A stretch of DNA of 64,000 bases. It comes from Pseudanabaena sp. SOY_30_concoct_251. GTDB taxonomy: Bacteria; Cyanobacteriota; Cyanobacteriia; Pseudanabaenales; Pseudanabaenaceae. The stretch's first letter is position 1. The number at the start of each line of letters is the position of its first letter. Where the stretch lies: NCBI GenBank assembly GCA_031388585.1, contig JANMRU010000141.1:3160-67159 (forward strand), read 5' to 3'. Positions 24,784 through 47,952 of this stretch are shown here, piece by piece. The notes beneath the pieces are model-generated. The model saw nothing but the letters and a program-made list of their open reading frames with translations. It was not told where the DNA came from and made no database searches. The position numbers and the translations under genes are program-made.

Positions 24784-25824
24784 CTAGGTTTTCTGAGCTT
24801 TTTCTGCGTATGCTTTGACAAAGCGATCGTCAAATAGCTTACTGAGATTCGGTTTTGTTTTTGCTAAGCCAACCTCGTTGAGGAATTTACTCATCTGTTC
24901 GGCAGCAAATGGTAATGAACCCATATCAGAACCTGGTAGAAAGGCTTTCAAGTTTTCGGCGATCGTGAAAATTTGAGTGCCGTTGGCATAGTCCTTGTAT
25001 TCTTCAACGCTAACACCAGCGCGCTTCGCCATAATCTCATAGGCTGTCTTCTGATTGGCGTTAATGTAGTCTAAGGTGGCAAACCATGAATTGACTGCTA
25101 ATTGCACCAGATCTGGATGTTCATTGACAAACTTGCGCGTAAATACCAGGTGGTCAGAAATTGCACCTGGGAAGTCCTTAGAACTGAAGATTTCTTTACT
25201 CCCTGACAGCTTCAATGCTTGAGTAGTGAAGGGCGCAAATACGGCAACCGCATCAACTTGTCCTGCCACAAAAGCTGCCGCAGCTTTGCCAGTTTCTAGG
25301 GGTACAAACTGAATATCTTTCGCTGATAAGCCAGCTTTTTTTAGACCTTGCAATAAAAGGAAGTGATCGACAGTACCTTCTTCAGCAGCAACCTTCTTCC
25401 CTTTTAAATCGGTGATGGAATTGATGCCACTTCTAGCAATCACTTTGTCATTGCCAGTTGAATTATCATTCACTAGAACGATAACTTGATCCGCACCACC
25501 GGATACAGAACTCACAGTATCTCCCAAGGTTTGGCTATTTGCATCAATTTGCCCAGCGTTGAGTGTACTGATCGATTCTAAGTAACCATCAAACCATTTC
25601 AAATCTACTTGGGTTTTGGTGGCTGTAAATATCCCTTGCTCTTGAGCTACTTGCCAAGGGAACCAGCCTGGCCATGCACTAAATCCTAAACGAATAGTAG
25701 TTTGGGTTGCTGAAGTTGGTGAGCTGTTTGTGGAAATCTGGTTTGCGGGATTTGTACAGCCTACCGCAAGGGTTAAACTAATGCAGAAGAGTAAGAAACA
25801 AGAAAGAAGTGATTTGATTTTCAT
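24784..25824 (-). CDS. ABC transporter substrate-binding lipoprotein (NMT1/TauA-like); predicted guanidine-binding component
   Basis: Lipobox LTLAVGC and a periplasmic-binding-protein pattern. The ligand assignment is inferred from operon and riboswitch context. Confidence 0.75.
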   Translation of the reverse strand: MKIKSLLSCFLLFCISLTLAVGCTNPANQISTNSSPTSATQTTIRLGFSAWPGWFPWQVAQEQGIFTATKTQVDLKWFDGYLESISTLNAGQIDANSQTLGDTVSSVSGGADQVIVLVNDNSTGNDKVIARSGINSITDLKGKKVAAEEGTVDHFLLLQGLKKAGLSAKDIQFVPLETGKAAAAFVAGQVDAVAVFAPFTTQALKLSGSKEIFSSKDFPGAISDHLVFTRKFVNEHPDLVQLAVNSWFATLDYINANQKTAYEIMAKRAGVSVEEYKDYANGTQIFTIAENLKAFLPGSDMGSLPFAAEQMSKFLNEVGLAKTKPNLSKLFDDRFVKAYAEKAQKT

Positions 25825-25833
25825 AATACATCC

Positions 25834-26532
25834 TTACAAGTGACTAACCGCTAAGTTTTGCTTTGCGGCAATTTGCGATCGCAACCACCCAAACCAGGCT
25901 TCTAAGCCCTCACTGGTTTTAGCCGAAATGGGAAAGATCGCGCAATGGGGATTCATTTGGCGGACATTGGCAATAATCTGACTGATATCAATATCTAGAT
26001 GCGGGGCAAGATCCATCTTCGTAATCAACAGACAATCTGCGGCTTGGAACATCACAGGATATTTCAGCGGTTTATCTTCTCCTTCAGTGATGCTCAAAAG
26101 TGCGACCTTAGCATGTTCGCCCACTTCAAACTCGGCGGGACAAACCAGATTGCCAACATTCTCAACTAAAACGAGATCGAATTCAGTTGGAGTGTATTCG
26201 TGCTCTAATCGATGAATCCCACCCGCAACCATTTTGGCGTCGAGATGACAGGAGCGTCCTGTATTAATTGCTATGACTGGGACATCGTAGCAACGTAGGC
26301 GCTCAGCATCCAGCTCTGTGGTCATGTCACCTTCTATTACGGCAATTCTAAACTCTCGATTCAGTGCTGCTAGGGTGCGCTCTAACAGCACGGTCTTGCC
26401 CGCACCGGGGCTACTCATAATATTTAGGCAGGTGATACCCCATTTGTCAAAGTGGGCGCGATTATGGTCTGCTCCTTGCTGATTGGCGTGAAGCAAGTTA
26501 ATGCCGAGGGCAGCGTCAAAGGTTTGATGCAT
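25834..26532 (-). CDS. hypB: HypB-family metal-binding GTPase; by context a GhaB-like accessory protein for Ni loading of guanidine hydrolase
   Basis: P-loop [21 protein letters not shown] and a TKMD NKxD-like motif. No hydrogenase genes are nearby, and it sits directly downstream of the arginase-fold gene. Confidence 0.8.
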
Positions 26533-26543
26533 AGGATCTCCAG

Positions 26544-26933
26544 TTAGCGGGAAAGGGTGGTGGCGATGGTTTGCTCAGAACGGGTGCAGGTATATTCGAT
26601 GCGATCGATTTTCAGCTCTCGTCCTGAGCGGATATCTTCCATAGGAGAGCGACAATCGGGACAGGCATATTGAATACCAATTTCTGGTTGATACTCCTGT
26701 TGGCAGCCGTGGCAAAAGGCAATGAGGGGAGACTCACAAATCACGAGAGCTGCCTTTTCTAGAAAGGTATTTAGAGTCTGAACTTCAAATGTGAACTGCA
26801 AACTCATGGGTTCCACACATGTGAACTTCCCGACTGTGAGATGAACGTGAGAGATCTCAACAGGTTCTGGCTGACTCTCCCACCAGTCTTTTACAGTCAA
26901 GATCAAAGCTTTCGTCATATCTATTTCGTGCAT
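26544..26933 (-). CDS. hypA: HypA-family zinc-ribbon Ni metallochaperone; by context GhaA-like
   Basis: MHE N-terminus and CHGC...CPDC zinc site. The ATG at 26933 lies 10 nt after the upstream stop; the track's longer ORF overlaps the upstream gene. Confidence 0.8.
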
Positions 26934-26943
26934 GGTGTTATCC

Positions 26944-28140
26944 TCATGCCCACGGTATATCGACAGACATATTGGCTTCAGGATGGATGTAAGTGGCTTT
27001 TTGTTTGCGTGGTAATTGGCCAGAGAGCACCAAATGCGCCATCGCGTCACAAATTACTCGCGTTGCTAATAGTGAAGTCATATCGCTGACATCGTAGGGA
27101 GGAGACACTTCAACTATCTCTAGTCCACAAACGGGGGCGCGTTGCACAATTTTGCCAAGCAGTGCGAGAGCTTCACGAGGTAGTAAACCTCCTGGTTCTG
27201 GCCAGCCTGTACCTGGGACAAATCCAGCATCGATACAATCAATATCAAAACTAATATAGACGCAATCAGTGCCATCTAAAGCGCGTTCTAGGGCAAACTC
27301 CACCGAGGCATCAATGCCCATTTCCATGATGTCGGTAACGGTGAGAATGTTTGTGGCACGCTCTCGGCAAACCTTAACTCCTTGACGGGGAACCTGCCAA
27401 CCGCCAATCCCTAACTGCACTAGATTTTTGGCTGGCGCATTCTTCATGTTGGTAGCATGGAACCAAGGACAGGTGTGCATCCTTTCATCTAGATCGGTCT
27501 CTTGGGTATCGACGTGGCGATCGAAGTGGATAATTCCGACCTTTTTGTCTCCTAGATGGCGACATACTCCTCGAACCGTGGGAAATCCGATAGAGTGATC
27601 GCCGCCAAGAATGATCGGGAACGCACCAGAACTGAAAACGTGAGCAACTCCTTTGGATATTTGATCGAAGGATTTCTCGTTGTTGGCAGGAATGGTAAAT
27701 ATATCGCCAACATCGCAGAGGGTAATTTGTTCGCGCAAGTCAACGCCTAACTCAAAGTTGTAGGGTGTATAGAGGGCGGAAATGCGACGGATGCCTTGAG
27801 GGCCAAAACGAGTGCCTGGGCGGTAGGTGGTGCCAGAGTCGTGAGGTACGCCAACGATCGCCACATCGTATTCCCCTACTTTACGCACATCTTCTAGATA
27901 AGGGGCTTTCATAAACGTGTTGATCCCGGCGTAGTGGGGGAGTTCGCCGCGAGAAAAGGTGGGAATAGAGCGATCGCGAATACTCTCTGCTGCTTCCAAT
28001 CCATATTCTAGACCTTTGGAAACTTCTTGTTGCCAGCCTGATAGAGGCAGTTGTGCTTCACGCTCTAAAGCACGGTTTGCTTCAGTAGAGTATCCACTTA
28101 TGTTAGAGTCCGGACTTTGAAAAAGGGAATCTTCAGTCAT
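26944..28140 (-). CDS. gdmH: Arginase/agmatinase-family ureohydrolase; predicted Ni-dependent guanidine hydrolase (GdmH-type)
   Basis: Ureohydrolase motifs GVPHD, HFDRHVDT, GGDHS and SFDIDCIDAGFVPGTGWPEPGG, with an N-terminal extension relative to classical agmatinases. A guanidine-I riboswitch lies in the leader and HypA/HypB-like genes lie downstream. Confidence 0.8.
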   Translation of the reverse strand: MTEDSLFQSPDSNISGYSTEANRALEREAQLPLSGWQQEVSKGLEYGLEAAESIRDRSIPTFSRGELPHYAGINTFMKAPYLEDVRKVGEYDVAIVGVPHDSGTTYRPGTRFGPQGIRRISALYTPYNFELGVDLREQITLCDVGDIFTIPANNEKSFDQISKGVAHVFSSGAFPIILGGDHSIGFPTVRGVCRHLGDKKVGIIHFDRHVDTQETDLDERMHTCPWFHATNMKNAPAKNLVQLGIGGWQVPRQGVKVCRERATNILTVTDIMEMGIDASVEFALERALDGTDCVYISFDIDCIDAGFVPGTGWPEPGGLLPREALALLGKIVQRAPVCGLEIVEVSPPYDVSDMTSLLATRVICDAMAHLVLSGQLPRKQKATYIHPEANMSVDIPWA

Positions 28141-28182: not shown

Positions 28183-28240
28183 AAAAAACCGGGCGAGTAG
28201 CAAAGATAGATAAAACTATCGTTGCCAACTTCTCCCGGGC
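28183..28240 (-). terminator. Riboswitch expression platform: terminator hairpin overlapping the 3' aptamer strand
   Basis: On the minus strand, CCGGGAGAAGUUGGCAA...UUUGCUACUCGCCCGG is followed by UUUUUU. The 5' arm reuses the CCCGGGAGA that closes the aptamer, so ligand binding should prevent termination. Confidence 0.65.
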
Positions 28241-28372
28241 TTTTATCCCGCCGTGTTACCATTCTGAATCACTTCAACTTTTGAAAGAAAAAATGCCAGG
28301 TGGTTTACTTCTCTCGGACCAGCCGCTCAATCCAGGAGCATTGCCCATGTCTCAAACCGGAACCCTAGAAGC
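28229..28372 (-). promoter_or_regulatory. Guanidine-I riboswitch (ykkC class) aptamer
   Basis: The minus strand reads CUAGGGUUCCGG...CUGGUCCGAGAG...ACACGGCGGGAUAAAAGCCCGGGAGA. All three highly conserved ykkC blocks are present in the right order. Confidence 0.9.
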
Positions 28373-28656
28373 TATTTAAATTTTTTGAGTGTGAAAAGGT
28401 TTAATTAAGATAGGGTCGCCTAAAAACAATAAATCATGATTAGACGCGCTTAGATCGGAAACTTTAGCGACTTATGCCATTTTAAGGATTGTCTATCTAA
28501 ATTCACCTACTAGCTATACGGATTATTAGTAGCAATATCAGCAGCGCATAATTGTATCAAAGAATACAGAATCAGTCTCCTTATCAAAAGGCTCTGCTGT
28601 CCAAATCGCATGGCTATCAAGCTTTGCGGCAATATACCGCCATCTGCAACCTCAAT

Positions 28657-45442: not shown

Positions 45443-46627
45443 CTATATCAATCTTCGTTTCACCTGCATACCGATTGCTAGCCCCACCACAATAATAACT
45501 GTGAGGTAGAAAAGCGTAATAAACCTTACGGTTAGAGACGGCGCTACGCCCTCCACTTCAATTTCTTGAGTAACTTGAAAGGGCTGAAATTGCCGAACTC
45601 CTCCTGGCTTTGGCGAGACTTCAACTTCTAACTTGTGCGGTGCTCCATCTAAAAATGTCGCCAGCCATTGCAAATCCCCTGTAGCATTTGGCGATGCTTG
45701 GAAGTCCAGTGCGACCCATTCACCATCAACTGCCGTAGTTTTGACATGCAGAAGTGCATCCGTAACTGGCTGATTAGTCTTGGTGTCGATTACTTGAACC
45801 TTGAAGTTAGCAGGTTGCCCTACGATCGCTTGCTGATCGCCAGCTAGCCTTACTTCTAATCCTTGCGATCGCTTTATACCTGCCTCACTAGTGGCAATAT
45901 TCTGGGCATCAGGATTAGCTTGGTGAGCGACTGAGCCTTGGTCTGTCCCATGTGATTCTGCCATTTCGGCGTTGATATTAACGAATAGTAGAGCGCCAAT
46001 TGCTAGCACCGTCATACCACTTAGCAATAACCTGACTCGCTGAGGTGCGATTTCGCCTGTGGCGACTTGTTGCTTACCACCAATAATCCAGCCTCCACCT
46101 AGTCCCATTACAAGCAAAACGATTGCTAGAATTGCAAAATAGAGATACTTCACACCACTTTCGGGTACATCCAGACTTAAAGTTTGTTGAAATGGTGCAA
46201 ATGCTTGGGCCACTGTAGGGGTGGCGTTTACCTGCAATTGATAGGTGCCGCGAATGGGAAGCATCTGTTGCACTTGCAACTCGCCGTTGGGAGCGATCGC
46301 CTCCACATCTAATAACTTTGTGCCTTCCACATTTGGGAAATCAGTTGTAAACCAGGGTGTTGGAGCTGGGGCAAGAATCTGGAGGTGGATCTTGGCATTG
46401 GTAAGGGGACGACCAGCAGAGTCTAGCGCTTGCAAAGTCAGGCGCGTCGGCGTTGGAGTCACAGCAGCCTCGGCTTCAAAGGGTAAAATTTGGCTGACTG
46501 GCGGTTCGGTGAGCAATCTCACCGTAGACTGTGGCTGGGAAACGATCGCAGAGCGACTGAAAATTAAAGCGACCGCACATGTTAATGCCAAAAAAGCAAT
46601 CGGCTTGATCGATCTGAACTTAAACAT
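45443..46627 (-). CDS. Uncharacterised membrane protein with two tandem (beta-rich periplasmic domain + TM) modules; B12-riboswitch regulated
   Basis: Signal or anchor, domain 1, two TM helices, domain 2, and a C-terminal TM helix. The halves align: LTLQALDSAGRPLTNAKIHLQ with FKVQVIDTKTNQPVTDALLHV, and FAPFQQTLSLDV with FQPFQVTQEIEV. It lies 50 nt downstream of the cbtB-like gene. Confidence 0.6.
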   Translation of the reverse strand: MFKFRSIKPIAFLALTCAVALIFSRSAIVSQPQSTVRLLTEPPVSQILPFEAEAAVTPTPTRLTLQALDSAGRPLTNAKIHLQILAPAPTPWFTTDFPNVEGTKLLDVEAIAPNGELQVQQMLPIRGTYQLQVNATPTVAQAFAPFQQTLSLDVPESGVKYLYFAILAIVLLVMGLGGGWIIGGKQQVATGEIAPQRVRLLLSGMTVLAIGALLFVNINAEMAESHGTDQGSVAHQANPDAQNIATSEAGIKRSQGLEVRLAGDQQAIVGQPANFKVQVIDTKTNQPVTDALLHVKTTAVDGEWVALDFQASPNATGDLQWLATFLDGAPHKLEVEVSPKPGGVRQFQPFQVTQEIEVEGVAPSLTVRFITLFYLTVIIVVGLAIGMQVKRRLI

Positions 46628-46677
46628 ATTAATCCTGGCTTCCTGCTAGTTTTAAATACTGACTCGAATGCTGGCAA

Positions 46678-46872
46678 CTAATGGCAAGCGACAGTTAGGG
46701 TATGGTGACGCAGAGAGTGCATTTGGTCATGTATAGCAGGGTAGGTAGAAAAATAGATAGTCCAGATGATTAAAGCGCACAGCGACACATACAAAGTCGC
46801 TTGCATGGGGACGGATAAAGTAAATCGGGCTAGTTTTTTGGAAAAAGCAGTTTGGGATGCAGTTGTCATCAT
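46678..46872 (-). CDS. cbtB: CbtB-like small membrane protein (putative cobalt transporter subunit)
   Basis: One TM helix and the C-terminal HDQMHSLRHHTLTVACH, which resembles the CbtB His/Cys tail (H.F.HD.RH....CH). I prefer the ATG at 46872, after GAGG. Confidence 0.6.
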   Translation of the reverse strand: MMTTASQTAFSKKLARFTLSVPMQATLYVSLCALIIWTIYFSTYPAIHDQMHSLRHHTLTVACH

Positions 46873-46904
46873 GTACCTCGCAGATGCACTTAAATTACTC
46901 ACTT

Positions 46905-47075
46905 ACTTGGGCGGGCATTCTGACTTTTCAGCAACCAAATTACATAGTGAGGAGTTAGTTAAGAAGCCCTATCACTGCATAACTGGTAACTGAGTCTACA
47001 GTTGCGGGACAGCGTCGGATTTACACCGCTCTTTCCCCGTTACCTCTAGTAGCTGATCCCTACTAGAACCGATAA
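46905..47075 (-). promoter_or_regulatory. Cobalamin (B12) riboswitch
   Basis: The minus strand reads CGGUUC-hairpin(CUAGUAG..CUACUAG)-AGGUAACGGGGAAAGAGCGGUGUAAAUCCGACGCUGUCCCGCAACUGUAG ... AAGUCAGAAUGCCCGCC. That is the conserved core plus a B12-box-like 3' element, about 35 nt upstream of the cbtB ATG. Confidence 0.85.
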
Positions 47076-47131
47076 GCTTGCACATCATATCATGGGGGGC
47101 TGCCCAGGTTTTTAAAGCTTTGTTTACATCG

Positions 47132-47809
47132 TTAATTTAACCTAGGGCAAGCAACGGCTGTTAGTCTTGCGGTTGGACATTGCTGCTCTAAGCATGGCTG
47201 ACTATAGGCAGGATCTGTTTCTGGGGTGGGGTAGGCTTGGCCAAAAACCATTTTGCAACTGAGATCTTCAAAATTTGGGGTCATGGTGAGGGGAATACCA
47301 AATTTTTCGGTAAAAAAGGTTTGGGTAGGCACTTTACACATATTTACGCACATGCCAACGCAGCCGCTGTCCGCGAGGTAACGACATTTTTTGATATTCA
47401 CAGCAGATAGTTGCGATCGCACCGTCCCATCCGCCAAATTGACTTCAGCTTCAGCTATCTCACACGGCCCCACCAACCACTCAAACAATTGGGCTGCAAA
47501 CCACGCATTTAGCACGCACACCAGTCGTGTAGGAGAAGAAAAAGTGCGAATCGCCCAGAGTACTGGAGAGGGTACTAAAGATTGCAGTACTTGAGCCACG
47601 ATTGCTTGCTGCTCTTGGGCATTACGTCCCTGCATAATTTGTTTCGACAAATCCACAAAACCGCCATAGCCACTGACTTTAGTTCCCGTACCCAGAGCTT
47701 GAGACATCTTGCTAGAAAACAGCCAGATAAACAGGCGATCGATGAAATTGTCGTTGTATTCATCACTGAATTTATCTTTGACAACAGTTTGTACGGCTTT
47801 CGGCTGCAT
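47132..47809 (-). CDS. DUF4033 / D27-like (beta-carotene isomerase-like) protein
   Basis: CRYLADSGCVGMCVNMCKVPTQTFFTEKFGIPLTMTPNFEDLSCKMVFGQ matches the D27-family cysteine-rich block. The ATG at 47809 follows GAGGA. Confidence 0.75.
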   Translation of the reverse strand: MQPKAVQTVVKDKFSDEYNDNFIDRLFIWLFSSKMSQALGTGTKVSGYGGFVDLSKQIMQGRNAQEQQAIVAQVLQSLVPSPVLWAIRTFSSPTRLVCVLNAWFAAQLFEWLVGPCEIAEAEVNLADGTVRSQLSAVNIKKCRYLADSGCVGMCVNMCKVPTQTFFTEKFGIPLTMTPNFEDLSCKMVFGQAYPTPETDPAYSQPCLEQQCPTARLTAVACPRLN

Positions 47810-47952
47810 TGCTTTCCTCAAATCAGACTGCCTGGATTCAATCCTAACAATCTTAACTGAATCCCCAGGTGCGAAACAATGTCGGGTTTACACCACATTT
47901 TTCTCTTTGCCCACACTTATCCTAAGGACGATATTCTGTTCAGATCCCTTGA

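Follow-up and report, generated by a model that had tools for sequence, protein, structure and literature searches.

On the minus strand of the 64 kb stretch of cyanobacterial DNA analysed here (the window), a cobalamin (B12) riboswitch aptamer (46893..47088) occupies the leader of a two-gene operon that consists of cbtB (46678..46872, minus strand; 63-64 aa) and, after an intergenic gap of 50 nt, a gene for a 394-aa protein in the CbtA position (45443..46627, minus strand). The initial annotation had proposed a cobalamin riboswitch ahead of a protein with one transmembrane (TM) helix and a CbtB-like tail, followed, in place of the canonical partner CbtA, by a 394-aa protein with a signal or anchor segment, two beta-rich modules and three further TM helices that could be assigned to no family. 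Each of these elements is borne out by the results given below.

The whole window was scanned with cmscan against 4227 Rfam families. The leader matches RF00174 (Cobalamin) over the full-length model (1-189) at a score of 38.4 bits (E=3.6e-06; gathering score 31.5), so that it passes the covariance scan that had been suggested as a check, at a score only 7 bits over the Rfam cut-off. The cobalamin core GGGGAAAGAGCGGTGTAAATCCGACGCTGTCCCGCAACTGT and the B12 box AAGTCAGAATGCCCGCC are legible in the leader, as are the conserved aptamer elements GGGGAAAG...GGTGTAAATCC...GCTGTCCCGCAACTGT plus AGTCAGAATGCCCGCC. The leader can be aligned with 12 RF00174-positive leaders lying 5' of cbtB in other cyanobacteria, and the columns of the core and the B12 box are mostly invariant in an alignment of 13 cbtB leaders. 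The 3' end of the aptamer lies about 20 nt ahead of the cbtB start codon; since this gap is too short for a terminator, B12 control most likely acts at translation initiation. A terminator and promoter scan returned nothing above chance on the minus strand, and minimum free energy folding of the leader gave a z-score of 0.21, which is uninformative on the expression platform.

The mechanically called cbtB open reading frame begins with a GTG at 46902, inside the aptamer. Because homologs start with MTTQ and are 63 aa long, we take the true start, by homology, to be one of two tandem ATG codons, at 46872 or 46869. A GAGG 3-6 nt 5' of these codons (46876..46879, minus strand) reads as the likely Shine-Dalgarno sequence of cbtB. 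The encoded protein matches the CbtB family of Pfam by a narrow margin (PF09489, 27.7 bits; cut-off 27) and falls below the cut-off of the stricter NCBIfam model TIGR02459 (22 bits against 64.4); its close homologs carry the NCBI name 'CbtB domain-containing protein'. It comprises a single TM helix and a C-terminal tail of the form HDxxHxxRHHxxxxxCH, the C-terminal end being HDQMHSLRHHTLTVACH. The tail, ...YPAIHDQMHSLRHHTLTVACH, matches that of the CbtB of Shinella (LHDTAHDTRHSYGFPCH), and neither the cyanobacterial nor the distant pairs show any variation at its H, H, RH and CH. These His and Cys residues suggest ion binding, and the positive-inside rule would place the tail in the periplasm.

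The second open reading frame is a real gene, with at least 673 homologs, the closest non-self ones being 82-88% identical. In the AlphaFold2 model of the protein (mean pLDDT 77.6, pTM 0.69), a signal peptide or anchor helix (residues 7-26) is followed by a first beta-sandwich domain (residues ~35-154, with the family motifs TDFPxVEGT and PIRGxY), by TM helices at residues 159-183 and 196-225, by a disordered linker with His and acidic residues, by a second, YtkA-like beta-sandwich domain (residues ~251-359, motif FxDGAPH) and by a C-terminal TM helix (residues 365-393). Four helices are thus predicted, one of them possibly a cleaved signal peptide. Both all-beta domains, of some 110-120 aa each, are modelled at pLDDT mostly 83-94 with helices on either side, and we infer that they are extracytoplasmic and tethered to the membrane. 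The protein is internally duplicated (first half against second half in hhalign: E=2.3e-5, 76% probability, 116 columns): a module made up of a YtkA-like beta-sandwich and the TM helix after it occurs twice in tandem. Four acidic or His residues, D96, E101, D327 and H331, are invariant in the family alignment from cyanobacteria through to the distant pairs. The linker after TM3, which could be placed in 64 full-length representatives, holds at least three His in 23 of them and is often acidic too; these invariant residues and the His/acidic linker appear suited to the metal capture predicted below. Some relatives have Met-rich linkers instead (SMPMSHM), a type of stretch more typical of Cu(I). 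Conserved polar residues are few in the helices (an invariant Gln in CbtB; Ser, Asn and Thr in TM3 and TM4), and no ion path through them is evident.

No Pfam or NCBIfam family scores above threshold for the 394-aa protein. The closest is YtkA (PF13115), a weak match of 23.3 bits against a cut-off of 25.9 over residues 253-299; PF13115 appears at E<=1 in 12 of 26 family members (best 2.2e-5), is precomputed for two members (P0053 and P0093) and exceeds the cut-off in one distant relative (P0164, 30.4 bits). Among the folds that had been put forward for this protein, the YtkA-like one is partly upheld, and two others fall away: DUF4198/NikM gave zero matches in any scan, and FixH (PF05751) reached E=0.02-0.045 in three relatives, far under the cut-off. 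A Foldseek comparison of the whole model with the PDB returned generic tandem Ig-like proteins alone, at uninformative TM-scores of 0.16-0.23, and a PDB sequence search found no relative (best E=0.83, an FGFR Ig domain).

CbtA itself is missing from the operon: in a Pfam scan covering it and its flanks, no open reading frame has a CbtA match. Nor is the 394-aa protein a divergent CbtA, a possibility that the initial annotation had kept in view. PF09490 is absent at E<=1 from the window protein, from 26 family members and from 10 distant relatives, and an hhalign comparison of the family profile with a verified CbtA gave a probability of 0.17%. The reference was a Shinella protein (PF09490, 151 bits) from a canonical cbtB-cbtA-...-cobW arrangement reached through a plasmid tblastn match; its periplasmic loop carries AHDGEGHEEGG, comparable to the His/acidic linker of the 394-aa protein.

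At least 292 species genomes carry relatives of the 394-aa protein, frequently on plasmids, and a family profile search collected 363 clusters at 50% identity. We examined 80 cyanobacterial loci, two of which are cut by contig ends; all 78 that could be tested have a cbtB-like open reading frame immediately 5' of the homolog and in the same orientation. The TIGRFAM definition of the CbtB family includes obligate co-localisation with CbtA, yet at every one of these loci the neighbour of cbtB belongs to the 394-aa family. The pairing also holds in the reverse direction: behind each of the cbtB genes of Stanieria, Pseudanabaena, Neosynechococcus and Nostoc PCC 7120 stands a homolog of 45-50% identity, carried in Nostoc PCC 7120 on plasmid pCC7120beta together with its cbtB (WP_010993931 and WP_010993932, the latter being the homolog). 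A profile search with the CbtB alignment returned almost exclusively cyanobacterial CbtB, and inspection of 405 proteins revealed no fusion of CbtB with its partner.

Scored with a covariance model built in this analysis, a canonical B12 riboswitch precedes cbtB at 34 of the 78 loci, of which 33 match over the full length at more than 100 bits and one in truncated form. Rfam's own RF00174 cut-off is passed by 13 of 20 loci tested, and the homologous leaders of other cyanobacteria reach up to 66.6 bits. The canonical element is missing from about 44 of the 78 loci, and many Nostocales loci have lost it; Leptolyngbya boryana and Oscillatoria nigro-viridis PCC 7112 are among the strains that retain it. 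Downstream of the pair, DUF1636 lies on the same strand at 29 of the 80 loci and CobW at five; in Nostoc carneum, cbiX and a precorrin methylase gene are found about 4 kb away. Many cyanobacterial pairs are plasmid-borne and lie in mixed metal islands; P-type ATPases occur at 22 of the 80 loci and multicopper oxidases at 19, and Nramp, CDF and ZIP genes and ArsR/MerR regulators are present as well. An Nramp gene stands divergently upstream at about 11 loci.

Seven distant relatives, at roughly 20-35% identity and including one Chloroflexi group, extend this picture. Six adjoin cbtB, the order sometimes being reversed, and four lie within B12 biosynthesis clusters with cobN, chlI-like or cbiX/C/D genes. 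One such cluster (L089) reads chlD-like, cbtB, homolog, chlI-like, cbiX, cbiC, cbiD, methyltransferase; two (L092 and L096) read cobO, cobN, cbtB, homolog, chlI-like, with BtuF/BtuCD-like genes nearby; and in the fourth (L093) the homolog is placed between cbiC/cbiG/methylase genes and cobU/cobD. On the Chloroflexi-type contig L092, RF00174 heads the cobO-cobN-cbtB-homolog-chlI-like operon. A further relative (L087) is followed by cbtB, a chlI-like gene and then a nitrile hydratase of the cobalt type, as judged from the motif VCTLCSC of its alpha subunit. The link to B12 elements seen in the window thus recurs in other genomes, through riboswitches as well as through cob/cbi clusters.

Among known systems, the nearest is CbtAB, a predicted cobalt transporter (PF09490 + PF09489) proposed in 2003 by Rodionov and co-workers, as cited in PMC2667541. 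Both systems have a B12 riboswitch over a two-gene operon with cbtB first, a single-helix CbtB ending in H-x-x-x-H-x-x-R-H...C-H, a multi-helix membrane partner with a His/acidic periplasmic stretch, and linkage to cobN, cobW and B12 genes. They differ in that CbtA is compact (about five TM helices, ~240-260 aa) and lacks large extracytoplasmic domains, whereas the partner described here combines two predicted periplasmic beta-sandwich domains with three to four helices and an internal duplication; the cyanobacterial CbtB is, moreover, divergent, barely passing Pfam and failing TIGR02459. A YtkA-like fold takes part in extracytoplasmic metal trafficking in Bacillus subtilis, in CtaK (YtkA) and in the C-terminal domain of the copper importer YcnJ (CopC-CopD-YtkA), where membrane-anchored PF13115-type beta-sandwiches likewise stand next to or within an importer (PMC12362106, PMC13344008); those proteins, however, serve copper for oxidase assembly, without a CbtB partner or B12 control, and the PF13115 match here is weak. 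HupE (HupE/UreJ) of Synechocystis follows, in the same phylum, the regulatory logic predicted for our locus, a B12 riboswitch before a cobalt uptake gene (PMC7689651; regulon tables in PMC3766115), but is an unrelated six-helix permease with an HPxxGxDH motif, no CbtB and no periplasmic domains. The ECF-type Ni/Co accessory subunits CbiN and NikL/NikK also combine a helix, an extracytoplasmic segment and a helix and aid metal loading of a transporter core (compare PMC7689651); we found no sequence similarity to them and no adjacent CbiM/Q/O, and the pairing here is with CbtB.

In the papers that could be searched, none links CbtB to cyanobacteria or describes the 394-aa family; among named Cbt proteins the sequence comparison covered CbtA and CbtB, and the family might correspond to one of CbtC-G or CbtX. 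CbtA-G are reportedly defined in Rodionov 2003 and 2006. Neither cbtB nor the 394-aa gene appears in the 2013 RegPrecise tables for 14 cyanobacteria (PMC3766115), and the same searchable literature holds no experimentally supported cobalt importer in cyanobacteria other than HupE.

In our view, the two genes probably form a cyanobacterial module for cobalt acquisition under repression by B12, in which CbtB acts with a 394-aa protein that takes the place of CbtA. Judged from its sequence and associations, this protein is best read as a functional, non-homologous replacement of CbtA: its linkage to cbtB, to B12 riboswitches and to B12 genes argues that it works like a CbtA, not that it is one. 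Repression by the end product, B12, fits the uptake of a precursor. The initial annotation had inferred a role in cobalt or corrinoid acquisition; gene context favours such a role and narrows it towards cobalt ions, since CbtB, CobW, cobN/chlI and a cobalt-type nitrile hydratase are found nearby. With ample B12, the ligand (in cyanobacteria probably pseudocobalamin) would bind the leader RNA and switch off both genes, most likely by blocking translation initiation, the mode favoured by an aptamer ending so close to the start codon. With scarce B12, CbtB and the 394-aa protein would be made and inserted in the cytoplasmic membrane, so that the two YtkA-like domains and the His/acidic linker (His- or Met-rich in relatives) would face the periplasm beside the CbtB tail. 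There CbtB and its partner may jointly capture Co2+, which would then cross the membrane through a bundle of four to five helices, probably oligomeric, or be handed to a neighbouring transporter; the captured cobalt would feed B12 synthesis.

Several observations were counted against this reading: the few polar residues in the helices, the metal islands, the Met-rich linkers, the share of loci without a riboswitch, the marginal riboswitch score in the window and the status of CbtAB as itself a predicted transporter. The scarcity of polar helix residues would also fit a periplasmic cobalt-capture or chaperone module rather than a transporter. In such a module, the membrane-anchored beta-sandwich domains and the CbtB tail would bind Co2+ and pass it either to some client in the periplasm or to a permease encoded elsewhere, such as Nramp, HupE or ZIP. 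The divergent Nramp genes would supply such a permease, and the known YtkA-domain proteins are accessory metal-trafficking domains, not pores (PMC13344008, PMC12362106). Nramp adjacency is nevertheless confined to a minority of loci, the pair is the sole membrane-protein candidate for cobalt entry seen within the B12 clusters of L089, L092 and L096, and CbtA, the usual partner of CbtB, is presumed to be the permease; we hold this alternative to be unlikely, though the most serious of the three considered.

The metal itself could also be another one. A role of the pair in copper, nickel or zinc handling or in metal resistance, with the B12 riboswitch as a lineage-specific add-on, would accord with the plasmid islands of CopA-like ATPases, multicopper oxidases, CDF, ZIP and MerR/ArsR genes, with the Met-rich linkers of some homologs, with the loss of the canonical riboswitch from many Nostocales loci and with the copper-handling role of characterised YtkA-domain proteins (PMC13344008). 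Repression by B12 would make no sense for copper handling or efflux, however, and the CbtB family is B12-cluster-associated; the genes found downstream of cyanobacterial pairs include CobW and DUF1636, and distant homologs sit in cob/cbi clusters and next to a cobalt-type nitrile hydratase, all of which leaves this explanation improbable. Least probable of all, and only a slight chance in our estimate, is that corrinoids (B12 or its precursors), not cobalt ions, are what the pair binds or imports, as is the case for many riboswitch-controlled genes. B12 uptake genes are very often under B12 riboswitches, and BtuF/BtuCD-like genes do lie near the L092 and L096 homologs, but the His/Cys tail of CbtB suggests ion binding, the cobN/chlI chelatase and CobW contexts speak of cobalt insertion, the nitrile hydratase uses non-corrin cobalt, and profile scans and Foldseek detected no similarity to BtuF, BtuB or BtuG-type binders.

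The cobalt acquisition reading leads to a broader proposal, to which we give somewhat less than even chances: CbtB and a duplicated 'beta-sandwich plus helix' protein may constitute a cobalt uptake system that has so far gone unrecognised and whose origin is independent of CbtA. Such a system would serve as the main B12-linked route of cobalt entry in many filamentous cyanobacteria, some Chloroflexi and other bacteria, and in it YtkA-like domains would for the first time be seen to serve cobalt instead of copper. If true, this would imply that the conserved core of 'Cbt' systems is CbtB and not CbtA; the pairing of CbtB with two unrelated partners already suggests that CbtB may be their key metal-handling element. 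Cobalt supply limits the B12 (pseudocobalamin) production of cyanobacteria, which matters to aquatic, soil-crust and lichen food webs. The pair is a second testable candidate for a cobalt importer in cyanobacteria, present in the tractable Nostoc PCC 7120 and Leptolyngbya boryana. It also gives a name and a prediction to an unannotated family whose genes are now locus tags or 'hypothetical proteins' inside cobN-chlI B12 clusters, so that genome-based prediction of B12 producers could improve.

On the minus strand of the window, a cobalamin riboswitch, a cbtB gene and a 394-codon ORF follow one another between positions 47088 and 45443. The window is cyanobacterial (46% G+C; the HIP1 octamer GCGATCGC occurs 98 times), and the close homologs all come from filamentous cyanobacteria. 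When the whole window was compared with all 4227 Rfam families, the leader at 46893-47088 gave a full-length RF00174 match of 38.4 bits (gathering score 31.5, E=3.6e-06), which bears out the cobalamin leader claimed in the initial annotation; the core and B12 box quoted there are both present. The small ORF that follows, ending at 46678, encodes a single helix and the tail HDQMHSLRHHTLTVACH. It had been described as a CbtB-like one-helix mini-protein, and it does pass the PF09489 cut-off (27.7 bits versus 27), while falling below that of the stricter NCBIfam model TIGR02459 (22 bits, cut-off 64.4). A mechanical GTG start at 46902 lies within the aptamer; as cbtB homologs begin with MTTQ and are 63 aa long, the true start is the ATG at 46872 or 46869, just downstream of a GAGG. 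No terminator-like hairpin was found in the gap of only about 20 nt between the aptamer and the cbtB start codon, which suggests that the riboswitch acts at translation initiation of cbtB. The 394-codon ORF (45443-46627) begins 50 nt 3' of cbtB.

Directly upstream of the riboswitch, a D27-like (beta-carotene isomerase-like) gene on the same strand (47132-47821; PF13225, 127.6 bits) has its stop codon only 44 nt from the aptamer, so that the operon may have its promoter within this gene or be co-transcribed with it; a NagA-like deacetylase gene flanks the operon on the opposite strand. Neither gene is conserved as a neighbour of the cbtB-partner pair elsewhere. The window also holds a guanidine-I riboswitch (28230-28379, minus strand; RF00442, 66.8 bits), with genes for an arginase-family protein, a HypB/CobW-type GTPase and an NMT1-like binding protein on its 3' side (24784-28140, minus strand). 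This locus matches the known, ordinary cyanobacterial guanidine hydrolase / hypAB / uct-type operon (cf. PMC12704784, tables of PMC3766115).

Profile comparisons indicate that the 394-aa protein holds CbtA's place without being a CbtA homolog, as initially suspected. Our reference was a canonical pair from a Shinella replicon, comprising a 75-aa CbtB (PF09489, 68.9 bits) and a 261-aa CbtA (PF09490, 151 bits), with cobW further downstream. A divergent CbtA was rejected: profile-profile comparison with Shinella CbtA gave 0.17% probability over an 18-column two-helix match, PF09490 matched none of the near or distant family members scanned, and the architecture of the partner differs from that of CbtA.

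For the 394-aa protein itself, there was no Pfam match above threshold and no NCBIfam match, and no related PDB sequence was found. An AlphaFold2 model built from 26 homologs (mean pLDDT 77.6, pTM 0.69) reproduces the anchor, two beta-rich modules and three further helices first described from sequence: an N-terminal helix (residues 7-26), an all-beta domain 1 (~35-154), two helices separated by a short basic loop (159-183 and 196-225), a stretch of pLDDT <50 covering the end of the latter helix and the linker after it (~218-248), an all-beta domain 2 (~251-359) and a C-terminal helix (365-393) followed by KRRLI. According to the positive-inside rule, both beta domains and the linker would be periplasmic, and the short loop and C-terminus cytoplasmic. 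The N-terminal helix may be cleaved off as a signal peptide, since in distant relatives it terminates in A-x-A-like sites.

The two halves of the protein are mutually related: residues 30-190 and 196-394 align in hhalign over 116 columns (E=2.3e-5, 76% probability), in a register that continues into each following helix. Two tandem copies of a 'beta-sandwich plus helix' module thus make up the protein, a duplication that split forms confirm, as in the distant relative L094, where adjoining genes for module 1 (193 aa) and module 2 (207 aa) precede the start of cbtB; a representative search also returned many single-module proteins of ~180 aa. The suggested likeness to YtkA/FixH-like proteins is partly borne out by domain 2, which resembles the YtkA-like domain PF13115: this model hits 12 of 26 family members, one distant relative exceeds its cut-off (30.4 bits), and the window protein stays below it (23.3 bits, cut-off 25.9). 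Foldseek of the model against the PDB returned nothing more specific than generic tandem Ig-like proteins.

Domain 1 carries the conserved motifs TDFPxVEGT and PIRGxY, and domain 2 carries FxDGAPH; among 90 full-length cluster representatives, 87 have PIRGxY, 67 the TDFP motif and 64 FxDGxxH. From cyanobacterial members down to pairs of ~33% identity, D96, E101, R126, Y129, D327 and H331 are invariant. Many members have a His/acidic-rich or Met/His-rich linker after the third helix (HGDHHHH..., AHNHGDHDH, SEMSMPMSHM). Conserved polar residues within the helices are few (one Gln in CbtB; Ser, Asn and Thr in partner helices 3 and 4), and GxGGG is conserved in partner helix 2.

The family has at least 673 members in a 90%-clustered database, all labelled hypothetical, and forms 363 clusters at 50% identity (E<=0.001), with relatives in 292 GTDB species-representative genomes. 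Across its 80 best genome loci, the association with cbtB and B12 riboswitches recurs: a cbtB-like ORF lies immediately upstream on the same strand in 78 of 78 testable loci (two being cut by contig ends), and 34 of these 78 strongly match a covariance model that we built from RF00174-positive leaders (33 full-length above 100 bits, one cut by a contig end). Rfam's own threshold was exceeded by 13 of 20 leaders tested. In the reverse check, each cbtB gene taken as a starting point (Stanieria, Pseudanabaena, Neosynechococcus, Nostoc PCC 7120) had a homolog with 45-50% identity as its next gene. Within the 80 loci, a gene for DUF1636, a predicted metal-binding protein, lies downstream on the same strand in 29, and one for CobW, the cobalt chaperone of the aerobic B12 pathway, downstream in five; an Nramp gene is found divergently upstream in about 11, a P-type ATPase nearby in 22 and a multicopper oxidase in 19. 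We take Anabaena alr4027 and the 'cfrX' genes of the RegPrecise B12 regulons to belong to the DUF1636 family. Anabaena alr4027 is riboswitch-controlled (PMC10878165). The pair is often carried on plasmids (16 plasmid records, pCC7120beta among them).

Contig neighbourhoods were also examined for seven distant relatives (roughly 20-35% identity): cbtB adjoins the homolog in six, four stand in a B12 cluster and one beside a non-corrin cobalt enzyme. The order in L089 is chlD-like, cbtB, homolog, chlI-like, cbiX, cbiC, cbiD and methyltransferase; that in L092 is cobO, cobN, a small ORF, cbtB, homolog and chlI-like, with RF00174 in front of cobO. L096 has the gene order of L092 together with btuCD-like genes, cbiA, cobS and cobT, its cbtB having been missed by gene calling and located via the tail motif; the L092/L096 type has a close relative labelled Chloroflexi. 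The homolog of L093, without cbtB, lies between a cbiC-cbiG-methylase operon and cobU-cobD, and that of L095 is followed by cbtB. In L087, homolog, cbtB and a chlI-like gene precede nitrile hydratase beta, alpha and accessory genes, and the alpha subunit carries VCTLCSC, the cobalt-type nitrile hydratase signature. The ChlI-type AAA+ proteins that directly follow the non-cyanobacterial pair (~580-640 aa; L087:2055-3974, L089:3723-5459, L092:8306-10201, L096:8235-10070) have N-terminal HEAT repeats in two of three scanned, and form a recurrent third partner, possibly a variant of a chelatase subunit. Both Chloroflexi-type loci also have, between cobN and cbtB, a conserved 60-61-aa two-helix ORF (MLNVIGL...FYFANR; L092:6441-6623, L096:6594-6779), with no Pfam match on record.

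Leaders vary among Nostocales. At 28 loci, weak full-length matches to the leader model, from 54 down to 11.6 bits, occupy the same position just 5' of cbtB (L038:3469-3610, L079:3442-3583, L009:3467-3609, L005:3594-3736, L002:1109-1251, L021:3517-3658 and ~22 further loci), and even the best of them gives no Rfam hit at E<=1. P1 and P2 persist, with 84% paired cells versus 24-42% in slid controls and 21 of 30 pairs changed on both sides, in an alignment whose fitting to the model favours pairing. About 20 of the 28 have lost the core helix that binds B12, and the B12 box has changed. In many Nostocales the cbtB leader is therefore recognisably riboswitch-derived yet no longer canonical, either a decaying relic or, possibly, a variant aptamer with another ligand specificity. 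A further group, including PCC 7120, is without a riboswitch-like leader and has a sigma-70-like promoter (TTGTCA ... TATATC) overlapping the palindrome CTTGTCAAAGACAAAG, ~100-60 nt upstream of cbtB in L022, L024, L034, L037, L051, L071 and L076, and at L090:7835-7870 on Nostoc PCC 7120 pCC7120beta. The palindrome resembles an operator bound by a protein regulator, perhaps a metal sensor, and the Nostocales leaders as a whole look like regulatory turnover, through decay or replacement by such a regulator. The cbtB-partner spacer of Nostocales is ~300 nt; in PCC 7120, whose partner gene encodes 388 aa, this spacer contains GGCGCGAAATCTGCGCC, a terminator-like hairpin with TTTTTT after it (L090:8190-8225), which may partly uncouple the two genes.

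End-product repression by B12, the presence of CbtB, and neighbouring genes for cobalt chelatase subunits, CobW, DUF1636 and a cobalt enzyme together point to cobalt supply, and we consider it fairly probable that the pair serves cobalt acquisition, standing in for CbtA. As proposed, B12 would repress the pair, and the CbtB-partner complex would capture Co2+ at the outer, periplasmic face of the cytoplasmic membrane, since all candidate ligands (the CbtB tail, the His/acidic linker and the invariant Asp/Glu/His of both domains) would face the periplasm. The captured ion might then cross through a pore formed only by an oligomer, or be passed to another permease; that the pair is itself the translocating unit within cobalt acquisition is somewhat less likely than not. 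A pure capture or chaperone function, also a form of cobalt acquisition, has perhaps one chance in a handful. Plasmid metal islands, Met-rich linkers and the copper precedent for YtkA domains speak for another metal or for resistance, which we hold to be improbable, and binding of corrinoids by the pair is more improbable still. The contexts of the distant relatives, an independent line of evidence, favour the cobalt ion over corrinoids as substrate.

The closest known system to the pair is CbtAB, a comparative-genomics prediction only (PMC2667541). The riboswitch and CbtB of the window are further members of known families, and the partner represents a different, unnamed one, a distant branch of which may be covered by the names CbtC-G or CbtX. 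A 2009 survey of Ni/Co transporters covered 16 cyanobacteria and reported none of the 'other predicted Co transporters' in them (PMC2667541), and the 2013 RegPrecise regulon tables for 14 cyanobacteria list hupE, cbiX, metE and btuB, with cbtB absent, and give unnamed locus tags beside cobN in Chloroflexi and Deinococcus (PMC3766115). No such partner protein is listed in a 2021 review of cobalt supply for B12 (PMC7689651), and no paper linking CbtB to cyanobacteria was found in the searchable literature. These genomes would thus carry a cobalt module that is built around CbtB, regulated by B12 and completed by a partner non-homologous to CbtA.
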